Source of the DNA: Clostridia bacterium
GTDB lineage: Bacteria; Bacillota; Clostridia; TANB77; CAG-465
Assembly: GCA_017536445.1 (NCBI GenBank)
Contig: JAFXHJ010000012.1
Span: 2,348 to 66,347 of the forward strand
Length of the DNA stretch: 64,000 bases
Direction: 5' to 3'
This document shows, one piece after another, positions 7,670 through 63,990 of this stretch (position 1 is the first letter of the stretch; the number at the start of each line of letters is the position of its first letter). A program made the position numbers and the translations under genes. The notes under the pieces were generated by a model, which saw only the letters and a program-made list of their open reading frames with translations, did not search any database and had not been told where the DNA came from.

Positions 7670-8269
7670 CTACTTAACGTATGATACAGCAATTCCATCA
7701 CCTATATCATAAAGAGCTGAATCTAATCTTTCATCTTCTTCTATACGTTTTAAATATTCTCTAAGTCTATTTACCGCTGTTCTATGTTTATGTTCGTTGT
7801 ATTCTCCAAGCACTCTGCCTTTAAATAAAACATTATCTGCTATTATTATTGAACCAGATTTAGTAAGCCTCATAGCTTCATCTAGGTATTTCATATATTG
7901 TCCTTTAGCCGCATCTATAAATACAACATCAAATTTCTCATCTAATGTTTTCATATATTCATATGCATCAGAATGCACAACTTCAATTACATTTTCCATA
8001 GCATTATCTTTAATATTTTCTCTTGCTATTTTTACCATTTCTTCATTTAGTTCTATGGTAATTATCTTACCACCTTCTGATAAATGTCTAGAAAAGCATA
8101 ACGCTGAATAACCAACTGCAGTTCCTACTTCAAGTATTGTTTTAGGTTTACGTTCTTCTAGGATCTTTTCTATAAACTCTAAAGATACATCCTGAAGTAT
8201 TGGCACATAATTTTCTCTGGCCTTTAGTCTTATTACTTCTATCTTGTTATTATCTACCATTTTCATCAC
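7670..8269 (-). CDS. class I SAM-dependent O-methyltransferase (family 3, YrrM-like)
   Basis: ILEVGTAVGYSALC SAM motif and DVVFIDAAKGQY. Confidence 0.7.
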   Translation of the reverse strand: MMKMVDNNKIEVIRLKARENYVPILQDVSLEFIEKILEERKPKTILEVGTAVGYSALCFSRHLSEGGKIITIELNEEMVKIARENIKDNAMENVIEVVHSDAYEYMKTLDEKFDVVFIDAAKGQYMKYLDEAMRLTKSGSIIIADNVLFKGRVLGEYNEHKHRTAVNRLREYLKRIEEDERLDSALYDIGDGIAVSYVK

Positions 8270-8834
8270 CCATACTATATATAATATCCATTATTCTTTC
8301 TGTTTCCTTGTTTAGAAGGTCCTTGTCTTTTATACTCTCTTTATCTACATTTAAATCTATTGGTTTACCATATACAATGCGTATTTTTTTAAACAAACCT
8401 ATTTTTTCTGTGATATGCATTGGCACTATTTGTACATCTGCAGCTGCTGCTATATATACAGCACCGTTTTTAGCTTTTACACCTTTATTTCTAGCATTTC
8501 GGGTTCCTTCAGGGAATATTAAAAGATTTTTGTTATGCTTTTTTATAATCTTTACAGCGTTAAAAACATGTCCAAAATCTTTCTTTCCTCTCTCTATCGG
8601 GAAAACGCCTTGAGAACTTAATATTTTACCAAATAATTTAAATTTAAAAAGTTCTGCTTTAGCCATTATGCCTAGTTCTTCTATGTCCGTATATATTAAC
8701 ATAGCATCTATTGCGCTTACATGATTTGCCACAAACACATATCTTTTATTAAAATCTATATTTTCTCTACCTTCAAACTTTACCCTAAAAAACGTTTTAC
8801 ATAGAATAAAATCTAGTGGTTTTCTTAAATTCAT
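8250..8834 (-). CDS. plsC: 1-acyl-sn-glycerol-3-phosphate acyltransferase
   Basis: HX4D motif NHVSAIDAM and FPEGTR motif. Confidence 0.8.
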   Translation of the reverse strand: MNLRKPLDFILCKTFFRVKFEGRENIDFNKRYVFVANHVSAIDAMLIYTDIEELGIMAKAELFKFKLFGKILSSQGVFPIERGKKDFGHVFNAVKIIKKHNKNLLIFPEGTRNARNKGVKAKNGAVYIAAAADVQIVPMHITEKIGLFKKIRIVYGKPIDLNVDKESIKDKDLLNKETERIMDIIYSMGDENGR

Positions 8835-8835
8835 T

Positions 8836-9507
8836 TTATATTAACCCTTTCATTTTTACTAGTTCCATAGCTTTTTCTACAACCTCATCTATTGACAAAT
8901 TTGTTGTATCTATTTCTATCATATCTTCTGTTTTAATTAGTGGAGAAACTTCTCTTGTCATATCTGCACGATCCCTTGTTTCGATCATATTAAGGGCTTT
9001 TTCGTAAGATATAATTTCTCCTTTTTCTAACAATTGTTTATGTCTTCTATTAGCTCTTTCTTGTACATCTGCATTTAGGAATATTTTTAATTCAGCATCC
9101 GGAAATACTGAGCTTCCAATATCTCTACCTTCCATAATTACATTTCTTCCTTCTGCAAGTCTTCTTTGACGAACAGCAATATATTCTCTTACTTGTTTTA
9201 TACTAGCAAACTTAGATGTTGTTTTTGCTACTTCTTCATTTCTAATATATTCTTCTACATTTTCATTATTAAGATGTGGTAAAAGCTTACCATCAACTTC
9301 TTTAAGTTCAATCTCAACATTAGCTAAAGCTTCTTCTAATTTTTCTATATTATTTGGATCTAAATTCATTCTAATTGCATATAGTCCAAACGCTCTATAT
9401 AACGATCCTGAATCTACATTAACGATTTTTAATTTTTCTGATAAGCTTTTTGCAAGTGTACCTTTGCCTGTTCCGGCAGGTCCATCAATGGTTATTTTAT
9501 ATCCCAT
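8836..9507 (-). CDS. cmk: cytidylate kinase
   Basis: P-loop ITIDGPAGTGKGT, 223 aa. Confidence 0.88.
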   Translation of the reverse strand: MGYKITIDGPAGTGKGTLAKSLSEKLKIVNVDSGSLYRAFGLYAIRMNLDPNNIEKLEEALANVEIELKEVDGKLLPHLNNENVEEYIRNEEVAKTTSKFASIKQVREYIAVRQRRLAEGRNVIMEGRDIGSSVFPDAELKIFLNADVQERANRRHKQLLEKGEIISYEKALNMIETRDRADMTREVSPLIKTEDMIEIDTTNLSIDEVVEKAMELVKMKGLI

Positions 9508-9580
9508 ATTTATTTACCTCTTTATTTTTTCCAGGAAATATGTTATCATATATTTGGATTAAAGTAAAGGGGTGCGTTAT

Positions 9581-11299: not shown

Positions 11300-11828
11300 T
11301 CCTTTATACTATATATGATATGGCAATGCGATAAGTAAATTTTGTGGCTTGAGGTCAAGTCGGATTTCCCTACAAACTACTACTCGTTGCCTTGTAGCGG
11401 TTTCCCTTTAAAGCTCGCATCTAGGTGTCGCCACACTAGCTACATGATTACCACTTAGTCCACACTGTAATCCTTAACACACTCACTGTATTGTGACAGT
11501 CTAGAGGTTTTCCCTAACATCATTTCACTATCCTTATTCGCTTTTGCAAGACTAATTTCAAAAACATAGTATCATTTATCCCGAAGTCTCACGCACGACT
11601 AGCTACAATTATATAGTACTCTCTATATAAAGGTTTACACATTATGTGAAGCTGAAAGAGGATATTATATATATGCCATTATATCTTTACCTCGATCTTA
11701 ACCCTAATACTTACGCCCCAATCTGGGCGAATGCAGCATAAACACTAGGTGCCATTAATATGCTATATGATGGATTTTTAAGCCCACCTTGAGATAGGTA
11801 CTCTTTTGACTAGAATACTGTGCCATAC
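11300..11828 (-). ncRNA. ole: candidate OLE (ornate large extremophilic) RNA
   Basis: Roughly 520-nt GC-enriched non-coding region with no ORF. It is transcribed from a consensus promoter (below) and reads through into the oapA-like gene. Boundaries are approximate. Confidence 0.5.
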
Positions 11829-11835
11829 AATATAT

Positions 11836-11864
11836 ATTATAACATTTTTAAAAATGATTGTCAA
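11836..11864 (-). promoter_or_regulatory. sigma-A promoter for the OLE-like RNA / oapA transcript
   Basis: Minus strand reads TTGACA-17 nt-TATAAT (rc of plus 11859-11864 and 11836-11841). Confidence 0.7.
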
Positions 11865-44509: not shown

Positions 44510-46237
44510 TTACTCGGTTTTAGTTACAACTTCTCCCTCAGTTGCAACAGGAGCTTCAGAAGCATCAGGCTTTCTAAGAGCGCCAAGTCCAGCGCCGATT
44601 GCCTTAGAAAGGTCCTTTACTTCGTCGGTGACAGGGCGGCCGTTAAGAGCCTCATTCTGAACGTTGAGAGCCTTCATAAGCACGGGGAACTGTGCAAGAG
44701 TATCAACAAGGACGTTACCAGTACCACCAGTTCCGCCAACGCCGGGGATGTTTCCACCGCCGATATTGATAAACTCAGCGTTCTGACCAACGTTGGCCAT
44801 AATTTCAGCCTGAGCGATCGCAATCTTGATTTGAGCCTCGGTCTGGATCTTGAGTCTTTCAATCTCGAAGTTAACCTTGCCGTTAGAAGCTCTTGCTTCT
44901 GCAAGTTCTCTTTCACCTTCAGCCTGAGCATGCAAGGTAGCCTTAAGACCTTCTGCCTCTGCAAGCTTTTGAGCTTTGATACCTTCAGCTTCTGCAAGTT
45001 TCTGCGCCTTGATACCTTCTGCTTCAGCGATAGCCTTTGCCTGAGCAACAGCAGCCGCAGCTTCACCTTCTGCACGCGTCTTGTGTGCCTCTGCTTCTGC
45101 AGCCTTCTTAACTGCTTCTGCATCGTTGCTTGCAACCTTTACACGTGCTTCTGCTTTGGTGGTTTCTACGTCAGCTTCACCCTGTGCAGCCTTACGCGCA
45201 GCATCTGCCTCACGTTCTGCAACCTTGATTTTAGCTTCCGCCTCAATAGATTTTACGCTTGCCTCCGCCTCTGCGTTAACACGCTTAGTTTCCTTCTCAG
45301 CTTCAGCACGGGTAATCATAACCTCACGTTCCTTCTGAGCTGCAAGGTTGGCTTGCTCCTGACGAGTAATTTCAACAGCACCCTTACGTTCTTCGACTTC
45401 CTTCTGACGGATGGTCATCTGAAGTTCCTTCGCAATCTCTGCGTCAGCGTTTGCGGTATCTGTTTCGATCTTGAACTGCGCAAGTTTCATATCTGTTTCC
45501 TTACGCTTTTCCTTCTCGGTCTGCTCTGCGGTCATACGGGCAATTTCTGCATCCTGCTTAGCCTGAGCTTCGGCAATTTCTGCTTCCTTCTTGGCAACAG
45601 CCTGCTTCTGGCGGGTAATTTTGTCTACCTCAGCACGCTTGATGTCTGCCGCCTGTTGCTTGTCTGCTGCATCGATGGCGGCAATGTTGTTGAAGTAATC
45701 GTTGTTGTCCGTAATATCCTGGATATTAAGAGAAACCAGTTCCAGACCCATATTGTCAAGCTCATCGCTTACAGCGGTCTGAATAAGCTTCTTATATTCT
45801 TCTTTCTCACGAAGGATCTGCTCAGGAGTCATTGCAGCAACAACGTCACGAACTGCACCCATAAGGGTAAGTTTAACGTCATCGATAATACCCTGATTAC
45901 CTCTTTCTTTGAAAGAAATAATCGCTGTACGAAGTTTTACAGGATCAGACACACAAGGTCTAATTTGAGCAGTCCAGTCACAAACGACCGGTACAGCCGT
46001 AGATGTTTTGATTTCATCCGCATCCGCAGTAACGGTCAGCATACAAAGATCAAAGTAGCTTGCCTTCCGGAAAACCGGGATAACGAAAGCACCACCAGAA
46101 ACCTTGATAACAGGTTCCTTACCACCGGTGATAATAAGCGCCTTATCTACATCGGCAACCTTGTAGATGCACGCAAGGAAAATGATGAGTGCAACAACGA
46201 GGCCAACGCCAATGCCTATAGGGATAAGAATTTCCAT
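44510..46237 (-). CDS. floT: flotillin-like SPFH/band-7 protein (FloT/YuaG-like), compositionally foreign
   Basis: N-terminal membrane hairpin, SPFH domain and a long Ala/Glu/Lys coiled coil with EA repeats (AEAEGIKAQKLAEAEGIKAQKLAEAEGLKA). GC is far above the local background, with AAG and GCN codon preference. Confidence 0.8.
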   Translation of the reverse strand: MEILIPIGIGVGLVVALIIFLACIYKVADVDKALIITGGKEPVIKVSGGAFVIPVFRKASYFDLCMLTVTADADEIKTSTAVPVVCDWTAQIRPCVSDPVKLRTAIISFKERGNQGIIDDVKLTLMGAVRDVVAAMTPEQILREKEEYKKLIQTAVSDELDNMGLELVSLNIQDITDNNDYFNNIAAIDAADKQQAADIKRAEVDKITRQKQAVAKKEAEIAEAQAKQDAEIARMTAEQTEKEKRKETDMKLAQFKIETDTANADAEIAKELQMTIRQKEVEERKGAVEITRQEQANLAAQKEREVMITRAEAEKETKRVNAEAEASVKSIEAEAKIKVAEREADAARKAAQGEADVETTKAEARVKVASNDAEAVKKAAEAEAHKTRAEGEAAAAVAQAKAIAEAEGIKAQKLAEAEGIKAQKLAEAEGLKATLHAQAEGERELAEARASNGKVNFEIERLKIQTEAQIKIAIAQAEIMANVGQNAEFINIGGGNIPGVGGTGGTGNVLVDTLAQFPVLMKALNVQNEALNGRPVTDEVKDLSKAIGAGLGALRKPDASEAPVATEGEVVTKTE

Positions 46238-48453: not shown

Positions 48454-49818
48454 TTATTTCTTAAGTTCCAATACACAAACACATTCTATATGGCTTGTCC
48501 ACGGAAACATATCTACCATCTTTATTTCTTTTATATCATATCTAGTAGATAACAATTTTAAGTCCCTTGCAAGTGTAGCTGAATTACAACTTACATATCC
48601 TATTTTAGTAGGAGCAAGTTCTAATATTAATTCTATACCTTGTTCATCTAGTCCTTTTCTTGGGGGATCTACTACTATGTAATCAAAAAACTTACCTTCG
48701 TCTTTTAATTTTAATGTTTCTTTTGTTGCATCTCCTAATACATGTATTACATTTGTTACATTGTTTATTCTGGCATTTTCTTTTGCAGCTTCTACTGCAG
48801 ATTCTACTATTTCTACTGCATATATATCTTTTACAGCATCAGATAAATATATTCCTATACTTCCAACTCCGCTATATAGCTCTAATACTGTTTTGTCTTT
48901 TTCAAGTTCCATCTCAGTTTTTAGAAGATTGTACAATACTTCTGCTTGAAGTGTATTTACTTGGAAGAAGGAATCTGCTGTAATCTTAAATGTATAATTA
49001 CCTATTTTATCTGTTATATATTCATCTCCAAATATACAAACATTTTCATCAGATAATATTACATTTGTATTTTTAGCATTTATATTTAGTACAAAAGATT
49101 TAATATTTGGATATTCTTTTGTAATTTCTTTTACTACCTTATCCATTCTTGAATCTTTTGCGAAACACCTATCTGTTACAACTAATACACACATAACTTC
49201 ATCTGTATGTATACCACGTCTAACCATTATATTACGTATATCTCCAGTTAGTGTTTTTTCATTGTATCCTACAAACTTTTCTTTGTCTAAAAGTTCAAAC
49301 AATCTTCTTGCAACTTTATGTGTTGTTTCATCTTGTATGTAACATTCTTTGTTGTTTACTAAATCGTGGCTACCTTTTTCGTACATACCAACATAGTTTC
49401 TACCATTACGGTTTATCATAGGATATTGAACTTTATTTCTATAATAATATGGTTTATCCATACCATATATATCCTTAACTAACGTTTCATCTAACCCTTG
49501 TTTTTTTATGTTGTTAATTACTTTTTCTTTCTTTATTTCTAATGTATTTTTGTAGTCTGTATGCATAGCTTCACAACCACCACATCTAGAATAATATTCA
49601 CATACTGGTTTAGCTCTTCTTTTAGAAGCTTCTTTTATTTCTTTTAAGTCTCCAAGTGCATAATTCTTATTAAGTTTTATTATCTTAGCTGTTACTTGTT
49701 CATCTTTAAGTGTTCCTGGTACAAATACTGTAAGTCCATCATCAGATTTAGCAATACCTTCAAAATTCATGCCAACATCTTTTATTTTGAAATTATACTG
49801 TTTGTTCAGCTCCAACAT
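48454..49818 (-). CDS. rlmD: 23S rRNA (uracil-C5)-methyltransferase RlmD/RumA
   Basis: TRAM domain, Fe-S Cys cluster, SAM MTase motifs and a DPPRKG catalytic motif. Confidence 0.8.
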   Translation of the reverse strand: MLELNKQYNFKIKDVGMNFEGIAKSDDGLTVFVPGTLKDEQVTAKIIKLNKNYALGDLKEIKEASKRRAKPVCEYYSRCGGCEAMHTDYKNTLEIKKEKVINNIKKQGLDETLVKDIYGMDKPYYYRNKVQYPMINRNGRNYVGMYEKGSHDLVNNKECYIQDETTHKVARRLFELLDKEKFVGYNEKTLTGDIRNIMVRRGIHTDEVMCVLVVTDRCFAKDSRMDKVVKEITKEYPNIKSFVLNINAKNTNVILSDENVCIFGDEYITDKIGNYTFKITADSFFQVNTLQAEVLYNLLKTEMELEKDKTVLELYSGVGSIGIYLSDAVKDIYAVEIVESAVEAAKENARINNVTNVIHVLGDATKETLKLKDEGKFFDYIVVDPPRKGLDEQGIELILELAPTKIGYVSCNSATLARDLKLLSTRYDIKEIKMVDMFPWTSHIECVCVLELKK

Positions 49819-50935
49819 TCTTTTTCCCTTCTTTTTTAGCTTTACTCTTTAATTTTGTTTCTTCTACAAAGTTATCTTTCATTATCTTAAATAGTATTGT
49901 TATTGTTTTTATAATCATATCCTTAGTTTCTTCATCTAATTCTTTATATGATCCAAGTAATATTTTACCTTTAGCTATTGGATTTTTCATAAGTTCCTTA
50001 AATGATTCTATATTTGTTGTATTTATTATTTCAAATACAACTTCAATTACCTTTTCACGTTTCTTAGGATCGGTTTGTTCCAACCAATCTTTTAAGCTCT
50101 TATCTATAAACTTACTTCCGTTTGTTACTTCTTTAAGTTTTATAAATTTATTGCCTTCTATTTCCCAGCTGTATAAATCATGTTGCATAACGCCAAATTC
50201 ATTACTTTTTACTACTGTATATCTACCTTCGTTATATAACATTCTTCCAAAGATTGAATCTTGTGGAATATACGTTTCAACTTTATTTATCATCTGCTTA
50301 TATTCTTTTGATTCAATAATTTCTTTATTAAATCCTGGGCCTTCATTGTTATATACAGTTACAATTCTATCTTGCACTTCTTTGCTAGCATATATAGCAG
50401 AATACACCGCTACATTTCCACCTTTAGAATGTCCGCCTACTAATATCTTTTTATCTGGATATTCTTTAGCAACTTGTTCTAAATATTTCACGCCTTCTAT
50501 TTGTGATGCAACGTGAGTCATAAATGTCATATTAAGGTCTTCTTTCCAACCCACTACTGTACTATCTGTACCTCTATATGACACATAGATTGTACCATCT
50601 GGCAGTATAATAGTCACTGCGGCATATTGTATGTCCTTTTCCTTTATAATCTTATGATCGTATTTAGTTACTAACATTTCTCCAAATCTTTTTGAGCTTC
50701 CCATTGCAGGAATTAAGTATACATCATCCGGCCAAAGGATATTTAATGTCTTTACATCAAGTTTAGAATATCTTTCACCAATTTCCTTAAATGTAACTGT
50801 TTCATTATCTTCCATTAAAGATTCAAAAGGGAAATATGACGCTCTAGAAAGTATTAATCCATCTACTTCATTAAAGCCATCTATACTTACGCTTAAATCG
50901 CCTCTCCATTTTATATAATCTATTACATTTGCCAT
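49793..50935 (-). CDS. DUF2974 / lipase-class-3-like alpha/beta hydrolase
   Basis: GHSKGG nucleophile elbow, 380 aa. Confidence 0.6.
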   Translation of the reverse strand: MANVIDYIKWRGDLSVSIDGFNEVDGLILSRASYFPFESLMEDNETVTFKEIGERYSKLDVKTLNILWPDDVYLIPAMGSSKRFGEMLVTKYDHKIIKEKDIQYAAVTIILPDGTIYVSYRGTDSTVVGWKEDLNMTFMTHVASQIEGVKYLEQVAKEYPDKKILVGGHSKGGNVAVYSAIYASKEVQDRIVTVYNNEGPGFNKEIIESKEYKQMINKVETYIPQDSIFGRMLYNEGRYTVVKSNEFGVMQHDLYSWEIEGNKFIKLKEVTNGSKFIDKSLKDWLEQTDPKKREKVIEVVFEIINTTNIESFKELMKNPIAKGKILLGSYKELDEETKDMIIKTITILFKIMKDNFVEETKLKSKAKKEGKKNVGAEQTV

Positions 50936-51005
50936 ATATACCACCTCAAATTTTACATATAGTATTTTATCAAAAAAGAGAAAATGTTGCAAGGAGTAAC
51001 AAAAT

Positions 51006-51105
51006 ATACTTTTTGATTCCGTCAGAAGTGAGCATTACCGTTCTTCCGAACAAGAGATTGTGTGTAGAATTCACCTCCGTCTTGTATATTCTTACGTAAT
51101 TGCTC
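51006..51105. repeat. direct repeat copy A: decayed duplicate of the 3' end of the beta-CASP gene
   Basis: About 92 % identical to 52452-52550. In frame it still encodes SNYVRIYKTEVNSTHNLLFGRTVMLTSDGIKKY. Confidence 0.85.
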
Positions 51106-51175
51106 AATGCGAACACCCTAAAACAAAAATATCAATTGAAATAGTAAACGCCTTTACTATTTCAATTGATGTTAA

Positions 51176-52231
51176 CTACTTTATAACCCACTGTCCATTT
51201 CGTTTTCCGTTTTTTCTTTCAATTAATCCTTTTTCTTTCATCTGAGACATATGTGATTTTACAGTTCTTAAAGATTTATTAATTTCTTTTGCTATTTCAT
51301 CTTGTGTTATTGTTGGATTATTTTTTAATATATTTATAATTGCTTGTTCTTCTAAAGTGCAATTTTTGCACTTTGAATCGTTATTGTTTGCACTTTTTTC
51401 ATTATCTATATGCGTATATCTATTTTTCAATTCATAATTTGTATTGGTTAATAGATTATAAAAGAACTTTTCTAAAAACGATGTGTCTTCAAATATATTT
51501 TTTTCAAAGTTTTTGTAATTTGCTCTAACTAACGAATTTCTAAAATACCAAGAGTTTTCAGCAAAAACATCATCGTTGATCTTAAACCCAAAAGTCCTTA
51601 AATATTTTATTATAAACACAGCTGTTGTTCTTGTATTACCTTCACAAAACGGATGAACTTGCCAAATATTTGAGGTAAATCTACATAGGTGTTTTATAGA
51701 TTCATCTATGCTTAGGTCTTTATATGAAAATGCTCTTTCTTGTTCAAAATCATAGTTTAAAGCATCTATAATTGTTTCATAAGAAGAGTATATTACTGTA
51801 TCTTTATTTAATACCCATTCTTTTTTAGTAAAGTTATAATCTCTAAATACTCCCGCATTTTTATATATTCCATTAAATAATCTTTTGTGAATGTTTAATA
51901 ATTCTGCTACTGAGAAATTAAATGTATTTTCACTTAATATCTCTGTAATTCTAACCGCTACTTTATCTGCTTCTTCGTTTTCTCTTGTTTCTAATTTTCT
52001 ATTATCTATTTCTTTATAATATTCATCTATCCTATCCTTAACTTCTTCAATATCTATATTCCCTTCAATATGTTCTTTTGCTGTTTCTATTAAATATTTT
52101 GATGGTTTTAAGCCATCAACATCTTGAAGTCCTATAGCCGTTTCCCATACCTTAGTTTTTTCTACTTTATTTGGTTCACCTTGTTTTATATATTCTATTA
52201 ATTCCAAATTCCAATCTTTTTTGTTGTTCAT
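51176..52231 (-). CDS. Fic/DOC-family protein with C-terminal winged-HTH
   Basis: Fic motif HPFCEGNTRTT and a C-terminal DeoR-like wHTH (ITQDEIAKEINKSLRTVKSHMSQMKEKGLIER). RBS GGAGG before MNNKKDW. Confidence 0.8.
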   Translation of the reverse strand: MNNKKDWNLELIEYIKQGEPNKVEKTKVWETAIGLQDVDGLKPSKYLIETAKEHIEGNIDIEEVKDRIDEYYKEIDNRKLETRENEEADKVAVRITEILSENTFNFSVAELLNIHKRLFNGIYKNAGVFRDYNFTKKEWVLNKDTVIYSSYETIIDALNYDFEQERAFSYKDLSIDESIKHLCRFTSNIWQVHPFCEGNTRTTAVFIIKYLRTFGFKINDDVFAENSWYFRNSLVRANYKNFEKNIFEDTSFLEKFFYNLLTNTNYELKNRYTHIDNEKSANNNDSKCKNCTLEEQAIINILKNNPTITQDEIAKEINKSLRTVKSHMSQMKEKGLIERKNGKRNGQWVIK

Positions 52232-52291
52232 TATATACATCCTCCACACATATTATTATAGCATTTTTAATACACAAAGTCAATTTCAAAG

Positions 52292-52316
52292 TGCAAAAAT
52301 TGCACTTTGAAATATA
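52292..52316. promoter_or_regulatory. palindromic operator-like site in the fic upstream region
   Basis: TCAAAGTGCAA-AAA-TTGCACTTTGA: a perfect 11-bp inverted repeat. A half-site is repeated 25 nt further, and a related palindrome lies at 51357-51382 inside the fic CDS. Confidence 0.5.
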
Positions 52317-52444
52317 TGAAATTGCACTTTGAATATTAATTTATATATAATAACTTTTCTCTTCCAAAATCATGCCTACTCACTTAAATTTACGCAAAAA
52401 AGGGCTAACACCTTTAGGTGTTAGCCCTAATTTGAGACTTAAGC

Positions 52445-53959
52445 TTAATAATACTTTTTGATTCCATCAGAAGTGAGCATTACCGTTCTTCCGAACAAGA
52501 GGTTGTGTGTGGAGTTTACATCCGTCTTGTATCTTCTTACATAATTGCTCTTTGCTTCTACAGTGCCGTGGTTGAAAAGAAGTGCTTTTGCGTTTTCAAA
52601 CCTTGCAAGGAACTTATCCAAGTCTTCGGGAGGGATGTGCGAAGAGTAATAACCGAAGTTATACATCTTACACATGAGTTTTACTTTCTCACCCATATAC
52701 TCGATTTCAGTTCCACGAGGCAGATTTACGATGTTCCTTACATTCTCCGGGATATATGCTACAAAGATAAGCGTTACATTTTTGTTTGCAAGCATCTTTG
52801 CACCATACGTTACAAACGAACCTTGATAAAGTCTCGGCGATGTGCAGATAATCATCTTAGGTCCTTGCTCGGCTGCAACCAACTCGCGGTCGGTCTTGTC
52901 GATAATCCTGAAGTTTTCCGGAACATAGTCTGTGCCGTAAAGCTTTACATACTTGGAATGGCATTTGATACCAAAGGTAGAATCGAAATAGATTTTGAAA
53001 TCCTTGATTCCTTCAAATACATTTTCCTTTTGCATGCTTACAAGGTCTGCACAAACTTTCTGAGGTCTTTCAAGAGAGTTGGACATATACATTACTGTTC
53101 CACGCTTCTTGCGAACGTTTTCCAGAATCTTGATGTGTCTTTGTCTCTCTGCTTCATCATCGCGAGGCCCATCAGATGCTCCGTAGGTAGCTTCAGATAC
53201 CACAAAGTCAATCTTTTTACAAACCTCGTCAGGAATGATTGTAACTCCGCCGGTGACAGGATTTGTCATTCCCAGGTCTCCAGTGAACAAGAAGTTCAAC
53301 TCTTCACTTTCATCGAAAGCCCTTACGTGTACAAGAACTGCACCACCAATATGAGCATTCGGATAGAATGTGATTTCCAAACCTTCCGCGGGAGAAAACG
53401 TTTCAAAAGGTGCTACAGTGTTAACTCTATCTAAGCAGACATCAATGTCTTTTCTTTCAAAAATTAAAACCGGCATATGAGTTTCAGTTTTGGGCTTATC
53501 CTTGGTATATTCCCTACGCTGTTTATCTCTCTTGCCACGACCTTTCGAGTCCAGCTTTGCCTTACGCACTGCCTTCTTCTCCGCTTTGTACTTCTTAAGT
53601 GCAACGTCATATTCTTCCTGAAGTCTGTCACTTGTCTCGGACAAGATACAAGGAAGGAGTTGCTTAGTTTCCTCGGTAGTATAAATTCTACCCATAAATC
53701 CTTTCTTTACCAGGTACGGGAACCGACCAACATGGTCAGTGTGTACGTGGGTTGCGATTGCAAACGCGATGTTGCTTGGTGTAAAAACGAACTTTTCAGC
53801 ATTCCTTTCTAAATGTTCTTTTTCCTGGAACAAACCGCAATCGATTACAAACGAAAGTTCCCGACCATCCGGCCAGACAACCTTCACATGGTTGCAGCTA
53901 CCAGTGACTTCCTCAGAGTACGATGTTACATAAGCTTTGATTTTTAGTCTACTGTCCAT
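52445..53959 (-). CDS. beta-CASP family metallo-beta-lactamase-fold nuclease (CPSF/RNase J-like), compositionally foreign
   Basis: MBL motifs VIDCG, ATHVHTDHVG, NAHIGGA and FTGDLG. beta-CASP motif A VVSEATYG and C LFNHG. GC is clearly above background. Confidence 0.65.
   Translation of the reverse strand: MDSRLKIKAYVTSYSEEVTGSCNHVKVVWPDGRELSFVIDCGLFQEKEHLERNAEKFVFTPSNIAFAIATHVHTDHVGRFPYLVKKGFMGRIYTTEETKQLLPCILSETSDRLQEEYDVALKKYKAEKKAVRKAKLDSKGRGKRDKQRREYTKDKPKTETHMPVLIFERKDIDVCLDRVNTVAPFETFSPAEGLEITFYPNAHIGGAVLVHVRAFDESEELNFLFTGDLGMTNPVTGGVTIIPDEVCKKIDFVVSEATYGASDGPRDDEAERQRHIKILENVRKKRGTVMYMSNSLERPQKVCADLVSMQKENVFEGIKDFKIYFDSTFGIKCHSKYVKLYGTDYVPENFRIIDKTDRELVAAEQGPKMIICTSPRLYQGSFVTYGAKMLANKNVTLIFVAYIPENVRNIVNLPRGTEIEYMGEKVKLMCKMYNFGYYSSHIPPEDLDKFLARFENAKALLFNHGTVEAKSNYVRRYKTDVNSTHNLLFGRTVMLTSDGIKKYY
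52452..52550. repeat. direct repeat copy B (functional 3' end of the beta-CASP gene)
   Basis: See copy A. Confidence 0.85.
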
Positions 53960-54058
53960 ATACTATTCTCCTTTAATTATATTAGAGTAATTTTATATAC
54001 TACTGCCTTTATTTTAACATCCACAAAAACATATTGCAAGGAAATTTCACATATTTTG

Positions 54059-54439
54059 TCACATATTTCTAAAAAACTTTAAGCACTCTAAAAAGCTAGC
54101 GTTCCCACGCAAACCGCAGCTAATAATTACGGCATTTTTAATCTCATCTAAAACCTTTTTATCTACCCTTCCTATTCTTTCCTTTAACCTACTTTTATCT
54201 AACGTTCTAATTTGTTCTACAAGAATAATAGAGTCCTTCTCCAAACCATATTTATTTTTACTTATGCTCACATGCGTTGGCAATTTCTTTTTAACTCTAG
54301 AGGTTATAGGTAAAACTATTACTGTATTACTGTATTTGTTGCCTACATTGTTTTGCACAACAACAACCGGCCTAATTCCGGATTGTTCGCTTCCTACTAC
54401 CTCACCTAAATCTGCATAATATATATCTCCACGTTTCAT
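54059..54439 (-). CDS. mazF: MazF/EndoA-family endoribonuclease toxin, no cognate antitoxin gene evident
   Basis: MKRGDIYYADLGEVVGSEQSGIRPVVVVQNNVGNKYSNTVIVLPITS..VEQIRTLDK, very similar to B. subtilis EndoA. Own TATAAT -10. No MazE/NdoAI-like ORF on either side. Confidence 0.75.
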   Translation of the reverse strand: MKRGDIYYADLGEVVGSEQSGIRPVVVVQNNVGNKYSNTVIVLPITSRVKKKLPTHVSISKNKYGLEKDSIILVEQIRTLDKSRLKERIGRVDKKVLDEIKNAVIISCGLRGNASFLECLKFFRNM

Positions 54440-54462
54440 AATCCACCTAGTGTATTATATGC

Positions 54463-54500
54463 AAAAACATAAAAAAGAATAGACAAAAAGTCTATTCTTC
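54463..54500 (-). terminator. intrinsic terminator after paralog 2
   Basis: AAGAATAGAC-TTTTT-GTCTATTCTT plus a U-run on the minus strand. Confidence 0.65.
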
Positions 54501-54502
54501 AT

Positions 54503-54595
54503 AATTATTATGTTAATTATTCTTTTAATAAATTGTGTGCGCTTACGCTGGTGGTACTTGCCCCCACTTGCGCACGCCTTGCATTAGTGCCTCAG
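54503..54595 (-). other. conserved GC-rich structured 3' UTR element (copy 1)
   Basis: GTGCGCAAGTGG...CCACCAGCGTAAGCGCAC imperfect hairpin. About 90 % identical to 63059-63129, with the loop diverged and the stems conserved. Confidence 0.5.
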
Positions 54596-55621
54596 TTATT
54601 TTGTTAAGCTAAAATCATAGTCTCCTGTTCCCGCTGTTGCTGGGATACTAGATTTTAGACAAACTACGGGACGCACGCCATAAGGACCGTCGTAGAGGCT
54701 AAGGCCCACACTGTCACTTCCCGCAAGCACAACATAGTCATAGTAGTCAGCAGACGGAGACGCCAACCAATAGTAATAACTTGACGGTACATATAATCCA
54801 TCACTTGTTACTGATACATAACAGGTATTATTTATCTTGTATCCATATGTGTCTGTTGTTAGTGTCATTGTTGGCGTATAGCCTTTCGAATTCCATCCTG
54901 CTACTAATAGTTCTAATGTAGGGCTGCCTATTGCTCCTACTACATTTGTTCCATATGTCGTTGTATTTGCAAAGTTTGAATAATCTTTTATTAATTGTGC
55001 TACTGCTTGTGAGTTATATGATGTGCTTCCACTTACTGTATCTACTAATGTGTATTTATCTGCATCTCCTACTCTAAATTTTTCGTATAGTGATAGCTCA
55101 TCACTTGTTAGACTTGCTACTGTTGTTCCTTTATCTAATGTTGTATCTCCTATTGATTCTGCTGCTATTAGATATACATAGTCGCTATTATGATAATATA
55201 TTTGCCAATCGCTATATGTTGTTCCATCTACTGTTACAGAGTAATCTACTTTGTCTCCATAGTTAGCTGCTGTTATTAACGAACCTAATCCTGTTCCTGA
55301 TGCGGAGTTTTTATTTGTAACGCTTACTCCTGTATCTGTTACTGTTATATTCCAGTCATCTGTTGTTACTCCTCGTTCTGCTAATTTTGTTGTTACTTCA
55401 TCTATTAGTTCTTGACCTCTTAGATTATCCATATAGGCATCTGCCCACACCAATGCAGCTAAGTCTTGTACTTGTGATTCATTTGTTAAGTCTACTGCTT
55501 CATTTGCTCTGTTTATTACACCAGTATTACTTAGTGTTATTACTACACTTGCCGCTAATATTATCATTACTATTATTGTAATGACTAAAACTATTAAGGA
55601 TATACCTTGTTTCTTTTGCAT
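54596..55621 (-). CDS. DUF1566-like surface protein with prepilin-like N-terminus (paralog 2)
   Basis: MQKKQG-ISLIVLVITIIVMIILAASVVITLSNTG. C-terminus YYWLASPSADYYDYVVLAGS...YGVRPVVCLK. RBS AAGGAGG. Confidence 0.6.
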   Translation of the reverse strand: MQKKQGISLIVLVITIIVMIILAASVVITLSNTGVINRANEAVDLTNESQVQDLAALVWADAYMDNLRGQELIDEVTTKLAERGVTTDDWNITVTDTGVSVTNKNSASGTGLGSLITAANYGDKVDYSVTVDGTTYSDWQIYYHNSDYVYLIAAESIGDTTLDKGTTVASLTSDELSLYEKFRVGDADKYTLVDTVSGSTSYNSQAVAQLIKDYSNFANTTTYGTNVVGAIGSPTLELLVAGWNSKGYTPTMTLTTDTYGYKINNTCYVSVTSDGLYVPSSYYYWLASPSADYYDYVVLAGSDSVGLSLYDGPYGVRPVVCLKSSIPATAGTGDYDFSLTK

Positions 55622-55639
55622 ATTTTTCTCCTCCTTTTT

Positions 55640-55695
55640 GCATGCAAAAAAGCAAAGCAGCACATACCTTTAAGTATGTGTTACTTTGCTAGTTT
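55640..55695 (-). terminator. intrinsic terminator/attenuator between the XRE regulator and paralog 2
   Basis: AGCAAAG-uaac-ACAUAC-uuaaag-GUAUGU-gcug-CUUUGCU plus UUUUUU, ending about 25 nt before the paralog-2 RBS. Confidence 0.5.
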
Positions 55696-55858
55696 CTATT
55701 TTAATTTGAGGTGCAAAAAACGCCTCTAATGTTTGTTCATTAGAATTGATTGTGTGTGTATATGTAATCTTATAACTTTCAACGTTTTTCATCTTTTGTT
55801 TACCCCTTCTTTATGTATTTAATCTTATTATATATTTTATTTTTTGTAAATATTTTTC

Positions 55859-63058: not shown

Positions 63059-63129
63059 TGCAATATTTTGTGCGCTTACGCGGGTGGGAATTAGCCACCA
63101 CTTGCGCACACTTTGCATTAGTGCCTCCG
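63059..63129 (-). other. conserved GC-rich structured 3' UTR element (copy 2)
   Basis: GTGCGCAAGTGGTGGCTAATTCCCACCCGCGTAAGCGCAC. See 54503-54595. Confidence 0.5.
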
Positions 63130-63990
63130 TTATTTTGTTAAGCTAAAATCATATTCTCCTGTTCCTGCTATTGCTGGGATACTAGATTTTAGACAAACTA
63201 CGGGACGCACACCAATAGCACAGTTGCAGGAGTCATCGCCCACATTGCCAGAGCCCGCAACCATAACACTGCTACCGTGGCTAGCAGACGGAGACGCCAA
63301 CCAATAGTAATCTGACGGTACATATAATCCATCACTTGTTACGTATACATAGTAGGCATTATTTATCTTGTATCCATCTGTGTCTGTTGTTAGTTCCATT
63401 GTTGGTGTATAGCCCTTTGCATTCCATCCTGCTGCTAATAACTCTAATGTTGGTCCTCCTATTGCTCCTACTACATTTGTTCCATATGTTGTTGTATTTG
63501 CAAAGTTTGCATAGTCTTTTATTAATTGTGCTACTGCTTGACAGTTATGCATTGTATAATTATTTTCATCTGTAGATGTATCTATTAATGTATACTTATC
63601 TGCATTACCTACTCTAAATTTTTCATATAATGCTAATTCATCGCTAGTTAAACTTGCTACTGTTGTTCCTTTATCCATTGAAACTTCTTCAACATAACTT
63701 TCAGATATTAAATATACATAGTCGCTATTATGATAATATATTTGCCAATCATCATATGTTGTTCCATCTACCGTTACAGTATAATCTACTTTGTCTCCAT
63801 AGTTAGCTTTAGAGATTAATGAACCTAGTCCAGCCCCTGATTGTGTGTTGTCTCCACCGCCATTGTTTTTATTTTCTATTGTAACTCCTGTATCTGTTAC
63901 CGTTATATCCCATTTGTCTGCCGTTACTCCTTGTTTACCTAATTCTTCTGTTACTTTATCTATTAGTTCTTGGCCTCTTAGATTATCCAT
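63130..63990 (-). CDS. DUF1566-like surface protein (paralog 3), N-terminus beyond window end
   Basis: C-terminus GVRPVVCLKSSIPAIAGTGEYDFSLTK. Long identical nucleotide blocks shared with paralog 2. Confidence 0.6.
   Translation of the reverse strand: MDNLRGQELIDKVTEELGKQGVTADKWDITVTDTGVTIENKNNGGGDNTQSGAGLGSLISKANYGDKVDYTVTVDGTTYDDWQIYYHNSDYVYLISESYVEEVSMDKGTTVASLTSDELALYEKFRVGNADKYTLIDTSTDENNYTMHNCQAVAQLIKDYANFANTTTYGTNVVGAIGGPTLELLAAGWNAKGYTPTMELTTDTDGYKINNAYYVYVTSDGLYVPSDYYWLASPSASHGSSVMVAGSGNVGDDSCNCAIGVRPVVCLKSSIPAIAGTGEYDFSLTK

Follow-up and report, generated by a model that had tools for sequence, protein, structure and literature searches.

A partial beta-CASP gene copy beside a Fic-wHTH cassette in a Clostridia genome: recombination scar or attachment site?

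When the 3' end of a gene recurs on the far side of an acquired gene, do the two copies mark the attachment sites of an integrative element, or are they the trace of another kind of recombination? The question is raised by a locus in a 64,000-nt stretch of a Clostridia bacterium (assembly GCA_017536445.1, contig JAFXHJ010000012.1, positions 2,348 to 66,347, forward strand; hereafter the window), in which a gene for a Fic protein with a C-terminal winged helix-turn-helix domain (Fic-wHTH) follows a gene for a metallo-beta-lactamase (MBL)/beta-CASP ribonuclease-like protein. The end of the beta-CASP gene is found again beyond the Fic gene. A first-pass annotation interpreted both copies as the attL/attR footprint of an element that targets the 3' end of a protein gene (a decayed or mini-island), with a cassette exchanged by recombination as the alternative. 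It is this alternative that comes closest to the evidence. The 105-bp distal copy is probably a recombination scar and not an attachment site, left by a history of homology-facilitated illegitimate recombination (HFIR) with DNA of a related lineage and of small deletions.

The repeat pair and the site of insertion

A direct-repeat search returned 51006-51110 and 52451-52555 as one direct-repeat family of 105 nt with 90% identity and a start-to-start spacing of 1445. The pair is far beyond chance, because all other direct repeats within 49000-55500 are at most 35 nt long with 71-88% identity. The first-pass annotation had described a duplication of the beta-CASP 3' end as direct repeats of about 100 nt flanking Fic, which agrees with this measurement. 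The proximal copy is the true 3' end of the 504-aa MBL/beta-CASP gene, while the distal copy (hereafter the stub) reads in frame as SNYVRIYKTEVNSTHNLLFGRTVMLTSDGIKKY, yet is part of no gene, as annotated before. Alignment of the copies also confirms the single difference noted in one half of the repeat: the 3'-most ~52 nt contain one mismatch and include a perfect run of 35 nt, and the other ~53 nt (the 5' half) hold all remaining mismatches.

The relatives used for comparison are loci from uncultured gut and rumen Clostridia (numbered L001 onwards), recovered by protein searches and gene-context look-ups. Empty sites in related genomes had been suggested as a check, and they were found in 11 related genome or metagenome loci (including L016, L020, L010, L103, L104, L105, L001, L002, and L019), with the beta-CASP gene directly abutting the DUF2974 promoter in the order beta-CASP stop codon, terminator, spacer of ~40 nt, DUF2974 promoter. 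Relatives with 98-99% aa identity are among them. L016 and L020 are metagenome-assembled genomes (MAGs) whose MBL has 99% aa identity, with 94-97% nt identity overall; L103 comes from the same study as the window strain. Alignment of L016/L020 to the window runs to 52385 and starts again from 51007, with ~5 nt between these points in the relative. Because the beta-CASP terminator and the DUF2974 promoter are directly adjacent in related loci, the window carries a strain-specific insertion of ~1.38 kb (52384-51008) between the two. Two ENA contigs, each from a different sample, belong to the strain of the window (L097, 100%; L096, 99.96%).

All genes of the region are on the minus strand, in the order Dus, HTH_3 protein, DUF6273/pilin-like gene, PemK/MazF, beta-CASP with terminator, Fic-wHTH with terminator, stub, DUF2974 promoter, DUF2974, rlmD, plsC, and pstS-like gene. 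The parts of the insertion and its borders are, in the direction of transcription:

52445..53959, minus strand: native beta-CASP/MBL ribonuclease-like gene, 504 aa (by Pfam, PDB, synteny, and GC)
52451..52555, minus strand: proximal repeat copy, the functional beta-CASP 3' end; 5' half 100% identical to L016, L020, L010, L103, and L104
52401..52428, minus strand: native intrinsic terminator of the beta-CASP gene, 12-bp stem and T-tract, present in every empty-site relative
52370..52384, minus strand: left junction (AAGTGAGTAGGCATGATTTTGG) and linker; homology ends at 52385 (L016/L020) or 52380 (L001/L019)
51119..52369, minus strand: Fic-wHTH module, promoter to terminator; 91-92% nt identity to L012-L015, L098, and L123, 88% to L011
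51111..51118, minus strand: apparent remnant of a recombinase 3' coding end, GGGTGTTC (…IEHP…), between the Fic terminator tail and the stub; junction with the stub GTTTTAGGGTGTTCGCATTGAGC
51006..51110, minus strand: distal repeat copy, an orphan stub of the last ~34 codons of another beta-CASP allele, without stop codon and terminator
50964..51005, minus strand: right junction (…AAGTAT/ATTTTGT…; stub to promoter AAAAAGTATATTTTGTTACTCC), then the native DUF2974 promoter (TTGCAA-17-TAAAAT); empty-site homology resumes at 51007

The linker at the left junction includes the 10 nt GTAGGCATGA. The insertion point itself is intergenic, ~60-65 nt beyond the beta-CASP stop codon and after the gene's own terminator, which does not fit an element that targets the 3' end of the gene. 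The interval between the repeats had been described as holding only Fic-wHTH and operator-like sites; it does contain a single gene and the palindromes are real, but the beta-CASP terminator also lies inside it. Neither does the distal repeat form part of the DUF2974 promoter region, as was proposed: the promoter core (50992-50964) is native and unchanged from the empty sites, with the stub just upstream and outside of it.

Two further single-gene insertions were observed in this neighborhood. The same beta-CASP/DUF2974 spacer contains a different insert in L017 (11572-12628) and L018, both of the 92% group, namely a single gene, equipped with a promoter and a terminator of its own, whose product is a DUF3592 membrane protein of 305 aa. 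Because L017/L018 carry this different single gene, the spacer appears to be a variable spot of recurrent gene gain. The other insertion is a strain-specific DUF6273/pilin-like gene in the window (54470-55858, minus strand) between HTH_3 and PemK, which are adjacent in L020, L103, and L104; it has no flanking repeats and a paralogue with 84% nt identity at window positions 63065-63841. Scars similar to the stub were looked for at the DUF3592 and DUF6273 insertions and none were found.

Origin of the stub and of its edges

A codon-level comparison was made of the stub, the working copy, and ten further alleles. The clearly homologous part shows eight in-frame differences, seven of which are in the third position of their codon (P=0.003 if decay were random). 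Six of the eight are synonymous and each equals a state in the functional alleles of L105, L017, L018, L019, L001, or L016 (TAC, GTG, AAT, and GAC in L105; GTG, TCT, and AAT in L017/L018/L019). The two others are unique, an R to I change at an invariant Arg and a D to E change. Because of this third-position bias and the presence of the synonymous states in alleles of relatives, the stub is taken to be the orphaned end of a different, once-functional beta-CASP allele rather than a duplicate that arose in situ and decayed. The 5' half of the working copy, in turn, is 100% identical to that of five relatives without the duplication. An allele exactly matching the stub was not found among MBL C-termini or the closer DUF2974 relatives; L105 shares four of its variants. 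A second C-terminal beta-CASP copy is unique to the window strain among the 92 loci that carry an MBL homologue, and a JGI metagenome scan with the invariant 20-mer CTCTTGTTCGGAAGAACGGT yielded only one unrelated chance match. The split of the stub into a diverged 5' and a near-identical 3' part was also considered as the mark of a crossover point and withdrawn as a strong argument, since the 5' half is about twice as variable among orthologues.

The 5' edge of the stub leads to a different gene. In six loci homologous to the Fic module (L012-L015, L098, and L123), the module is preceded by a VanY/M15 peptidase-like gene and followed by a convergent large serine recombinase gene (Resolvase, Recombinase, and Zn_ribbon_recom domains), and serine recombinases occur near Fic relatives in 8 out of 17 viral contigs (IMG/VR). 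In these respects the module resembles the ‘moron’ cargo at the integrase-proximal end of large-serine-recombinase phages and elements, with the difference that the window has lost the recombinase together with the remainder of the element, and that the recombinase is fragmented in L012-L015 and L123. In the latter loci the recombinase next to Fic (L012:2758-4289, L123:10515-12412) is split into two to three open reading frames (ORFs), i.e., in four assemblies and one MAG, and the Fic-recombinase element appears to be decaying wherever found. In L123, Fic and the recombinase are separated by an additional, inserted HipA_C-like gene.

In the window, the 8 nt GGGTGTTC between the Fic terminator tail and the stub form, together with the preceding TTTTA, a 13-mer that is identical to L098:1287-1299 and L123:10535-10547, where it codes for …IEHP…, 11-17 codons ahead of the stop codon of the recombinase gene. 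The linker TTTTAGGGTGTTC is an exact match to the recombinase 3' end in the same two loci. The background of the 8-mer is 3e-6 per nt (in 3.26 Mb of fetched sequence), corresponding to ~8e-4 chance matches over the 250 nt in question. Because 8-13 nt of a recombinase 3' end remain beside the stub, the window cassette seems to have been cut out of a Fic-recombinase arrangement. A segment of ~95 nt between the Fic terminator and GGGTGTTC is present in L098 and missing here, between TATTTTTGTTTTA and TATTTTTATTTTA. A tblastn search with a large serine recombinase found none in the 64-kb window and Fic is the sole ORF in the interval, in agreement with the earlier statement that no integrase is present. 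Of the proposed decayed or mini-island, the origin from a decayed element is plausible given the surviving recombinase end, but the attL/attR footprint is not.

The 5' edge of the stub accordingly joins recombinase codons at about -17 to -11 to a beta-CASP position at about -105, and appears to be an illegitimate joint of two internal gene positions, not the end of an element. MBL-like sequence is absent from the Fic-recombinase element in other genomes, because of which the stub is not considered to be the attP of that element. Altogether, the insertion comprises the Fic-wHTH module (PDC-S72), 8-13 nt from a recombinase 3' end, and the last ~100 nt of a beta-CASP allele other than the working copy.

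Histories that could have produced the locus

The history that we favor would start in a related donor lineage, where a Fic/serine-recombinase element lay right after the beta-CASP terminator. A donor fragment spanning beta-CASP into the element, broken off inside the recombinase gene, would have entered the window lineage. There, one side would have recombined homologously, within the beta-CASP gene or upstream of it, and the other illegitimately, so that the 3' end of the recombinase gene came to adjoin a position near -105 of the resident beta-CASP gene. The incoming complete gene, with its terminator and Fic, would then have replaced the resident gene and pushed its last ~100 nt downstream, where they persist as the orphan stub. 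The stop codon and hairpin terminator of the stub may later have been lost by a slippage deletion that joined AAGTAT to AAGTGA (or AT to AT); this step is proposed because the stub lost both while these short repeats flank the hairpin. The stub indeed ends with AAGTAT and the spacer across the insertion with AAGTGA, and in-silico removal of 52379-51005 restores an L019-like spacer (AAGTGA/ATTTT). Identity between the window and its relatives swings from 85% to 99.7% per 200-300 nt, which indicates frequent homologous exchange in these lineages.

The displacement of 3' ends (C-termini) with orphan fragments in rhs, CDI (contact-dependent inhibition), and T6SS (type VI secretion system) effector loci has been attributed to the same process (Kirchberger et al., 2017; PMC5361080), a paper that cites de Vries and Wackernagel (2002) and Prudhomme et al. 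(2002) for HFIR. Like these loci, the window presents a complete gene and new cargo followed by an orphaned 3' piece of the resident gene, with one homologous anchor, one illegitimate joint between unrelated internal sequences at the 5' edge of the orphan, and no need for an integrase; the orphan moreover stems from a different functional allele, judging by the seven out of eight third-position differences and the six standing synonymous polymorphisms. Unlike these loci, the displaced gene is a housekeeping-type beta-CASP RNase instead of a polymorphic toxin, the orphan has no immunity gene or evident function, the event is single instead of one in an array, and the stop codon and terminator were lost: the stub joins the native promoter without them, so that the additional AAGTAT/AAGTGA deletion is required.

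Several points weigh against the displacement history. The Fic insertion and the stub are known from one strain only (window, L096, and L097), and the donor layout (beta-CASP, terminator, Fic, intact recombinase) was not found among the matches listed in genome, metagenome, and protein-context searches, in which sampling is thin. It requires at least one extra small deletion (stop codon and terminator after the stub) and also the ~95-nt deletion relative to L098. The illegitimate joint is not placed exactly, a possible GAGCA microhomology being ambiguous, and the concentration of stub differences in the 5' half is not significant given the natural variability of that half. Finally, recombination is so frequent here that a duplication of another origin, with later overwriting of the working copy, could also account for the locus.

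Among the rival histories, an integrase island that used the beta-CASP 3' end, brought a replacement 3' end, and later lost its integrase is very unlikely. Direct repeats do flank the cargo, the 35-nt perfect block could serve as a core, and the remnant shows that a recombinase gene was once adjacent. In alignment to the empty sites, though, the proximal copy continues to the native stop codon, terminator, and spacer up to ~52380-52385, whereas the distal copy stops at …AAAAAGTAT, just before the expected stop codon, and joins ATTTTGT…CTTGCAAC, which is the native spacer and -35 box. The attachment-site interpretation is disfavored because the distal and not the proximal copy should carry the native terminator, the opposite of what is seen: the distal copy abuts the DUF2974 promoter without the stop codon and terminator expected of an attR, and the terminator after the proximal copy is ~99% identical to native alleles. 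No recombinase gene lies inside the insertion beyond the 8-13 nt remnant, which is of the serine type; serine recombinases are not known to create or require duplications of ~100 bp. The 5' edge of the stub, joined to an internal recombinase codon, the lack of MBL-like sequence in the element elsewhere, and the derivation of the distal copy from a different functional allele all argue in the same direction, and the reuse of the site that an attachment site would lead one to expect is not seen, without a second duplicate among the 92 MBL loci. The locus is thus like tyrosine-integrase islands and prophages at the 3' ends of tRNA, tmRNA, and protein genes in that repeats of a gene 3' end flank acquired cargo and relatives have empty sites. 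It is unlike them in its insertion past the terminator, its distal repeat without native downstream sequence, the absence of an integrase, the serine-type remnant, and the illegitimate repeat edges.

A Campbell-type integration is unlikely as well, to a lesser degree. Here, a circularized donor fragment (beta-CASP 3' end, terminator, spacer, Fic, and partial recombinase) would have entered by one crossover within the conserved last ~50 nt, followed by deletion of the second terminator. RecA alone suffices for this, and it predicts both a stub with a diverged 5' half and a near-identical 3' half and a proximal spacer (AAATTTAAGTGA) that is unlike that of the closest relatives and like that of L001/L019. 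Against it stand the need for both a prior illegitimate circularization and the terminator deletion, a proximal terminator that hardly differs from native alleles, and a final sequence that is indistinguishable from the HFIR product. An in-situ tandem duplication of the gene 3' end, with insertion of Fic and neutral decay of the distal copy, seems highly improbable: the ~8-10% divergence could have built up neutrally over the separation of strains with 94-97% nt identity, but the differences are biased toward third positions and coincide with synonymous polymorphisms of functional alleles, the closest relatives have no duplication, and the stub abuts recombinase-derived sequence. We give least weight of all to a chimeric metagenome assembly that joined two strain variants at a shared 3' end, for which there is hardly any room. 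The window does come from metagenome assemblies and strains with and without Fic co-occur in one study (L103 versus L096/L097); yet two independent assemblies from two samples have the same structure with 99.96-100% identity over 8.7-12 kb, the longest identical run of 35 nt is short compared to typical final assembly k-mers, and the junctions are specific and non-repetitive.

The Fic-wHTH module, the resident genes, and the meaning of the locus

The relatives of the Fic module (L011-L015, L098, and L123) are all located in unrelated genomic contexts with sharp module boundaries, and in the MAG that contains L123, the MBL shares just 59% identity and adjoins rlmD with no Fic nearby (L023). The module appears to move between species as a unit from promoter to terminator. 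Flanking repeats around the module were looked for in L011 and L012 and none were found. Plasmid and phage collections contained no close copy; viral contigs gave no match when scanned with the single Fic protein, and in an alignment-based scan only relatives with 27-60% identity. The following features were located in the module and downstream of it:

52322..52333: extra palindrome half-site
52288..52308, no strand: 21-bp perfect palindrome (AAAGTGCAA-N3-TTGCACTTT) overlapping the -35 box, presumed operator of the protein's own wHTH
52255..52283, minus strand: Fic promoter, TTGACT-17-TATAAT with extended TG
51176..52231, minus strand: Fic/DOC and winged-HTH protein, 351 aa; ATG at 52231, ribosome-binding site GGAGGA
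51354..51374, no strand: identical second operator palindrome, in the stretch of the coding sequence that links the Fic domain to the wHTH domain
51131..51170, minus strand: Fic module terminator hairpin, 18-bp stem and T-tract
49793..50935, minus strand: DUF2974/Mbeg1-like gene that opens the downstream operon; ATG at 50935, 380 aa

Pfam assigns a Fic domain (3.6e-12) and a C-terminal HTH_24 domain (9.4e-12) to the protein, which is a full-length match to PADLOC PDC-S72 with an E-value of 2e-123 (residues 12-334 on profile positions 7-324 of 377). Its family is very large and tightly conserved, with more than 8000 matches, the top 120 of which all have at least 77% identity. Compared to the canonical HxFx(D/E)GNGRxxR, the Fic motif HPFCEGNTRTTA (HPFCEGNTRTT) has T instead of G and no final R, so it does not correspond to the canonical AMPylation motif; besides the Pfam match, weak PDB matches to VbhT and Bep back the Fic fold. 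The palindromic operator-like sites reported earlier are present as two 21-bp perfect palindromes. The promoter palindrome is conserved in all loci homologous to the module, and the palindrome-to-palindrome spacing of 934 nt is kept in L098, L123, and L011. The internal palindrome encodes SKCKNCT. The pair of palindromes may permit the DNA to loop, or the internal one may mark a promoter from which the wHTH alone is produced. The Fic gene is probably autoregulated by its own wHTH at the promoter palindrome, and the most likely role of the cassette is that of a toxin-like Fic enzyme that works on its own and is kept repressed in this way.

By database prediction only, Fic-wHTH is a candidate anti-phage gene. 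PADLOC PDC entries are unvalidated candidates, and no publication on PDC-S72 was found. A validated Fic defense gene is SoFic (bioRxiv 10.1101/2022.05.11.491447; PMC12249575). Like SoFic, PDC-S72 is a stand-alone Fic-fold gene in variable regions, with relatives that adjoin restriction-like genes and integrases. Unlike SoFic, to which the similarity is weak (E 2e-10), the protein studied here has a non-canonical motif and a C-terminal wHTH with matching operators. In L100-L102, a Fic-wHTH relative with 82% identity directly follows a second Fic gene that is fused to an HTH_3 domain; this region is variable, contains DpnII/MboI-like, Mrr-like, and tyrosine-integrase genes, and resembles a defense island. 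A bolder model, which we hold to be unlikely, is that Fic-wHTH and the large serine recombinase constitute a minimal two-gene mobile defense element that would repeatedly seed intergenic spacers of gut Clostridia and decay to a bare cassette, with the 105-bp repeats of this strain and their perfect 35-nt core making the defense gene reversibly losable by RecA excision, an excision that would also remodel the beta-CASP C-terminus and terminator.

The beta-CASP gene belongs to a conserved core synteny (Dus-HTH-PemK-MBL-rlmD). Its product has the Pfam domains Lactamase_B, Beta-Casp, and RMMBL and matches RNase TTHA0252, Cas14, and CPSF73 in PDB. Because the MBL-rlmD adjacency persists down to 40% aa identity, the gene appears to be an old resident. 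A foreign origin of the gene itself, suggested by a GC content of 42% versus ~30% in the flanks, was rejected, since both synteny and GC excess are conserved across species: GC is also high in all close relatives, and the excess fades with distance (34-38% at 40-77% aa identity). A likeness of 33 nt between the beta-CASP and DUF2974 promoter regions was considered as a sign of a larger duplication and judged to be chance or generic promoter similarity.

Other observations concern the resident genes. A second GC-rich resident is a Band_7/flotillin-like gene (window 44510-46237; 48-50% GC versus ~30% for the genome), and long antisense ORFs are found on both genes (309 aa on beta-CASP, 520 aa on the Band_7/flotillin-like gene). 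The PemK/MazF toxin gene (window 54059-54439, minus strand) has no recognizable adjacent antitoxin and is always immediately upstream of beta-CASP across the genus (L001, L004-L009, L010, and L103-L104), which hints at a functional pair. In a lineage with 77% identity (L004-L009, MBL at 8001-9511), beta-CASP is frameshifted ~45 codons before its end, giving a 474-aa product with its C-terminus in another frame, and the frameshift is identical in 22 contigs from several samples. The window also encodes a full-length OLE (ornate large extremophilic) RNA (11304-11842, minus strand; 286 bits), consistent with an anaerobic Firmicute host.

In our view, the locus adds one more case to known processes: a candidate defense gene gained by horizontal transfer, with a recombination scar next to it. 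It provides a clean and dated example of how a single candidate defense gene can enter the spacer of a core gene without a working integrase. The stub and the recombinase remnant of 8-13 nt would record the route, in which the cargo of an element is captured by homologous and illegitimate recombination between related strains. The locus is also a warning that direct repeats duplicating the 3' end of a gene do not alone indicate attachment sites. For the abundant Fic-wHTH family (PDC-S72), it offers a natural pair with and without the gene in one host population.

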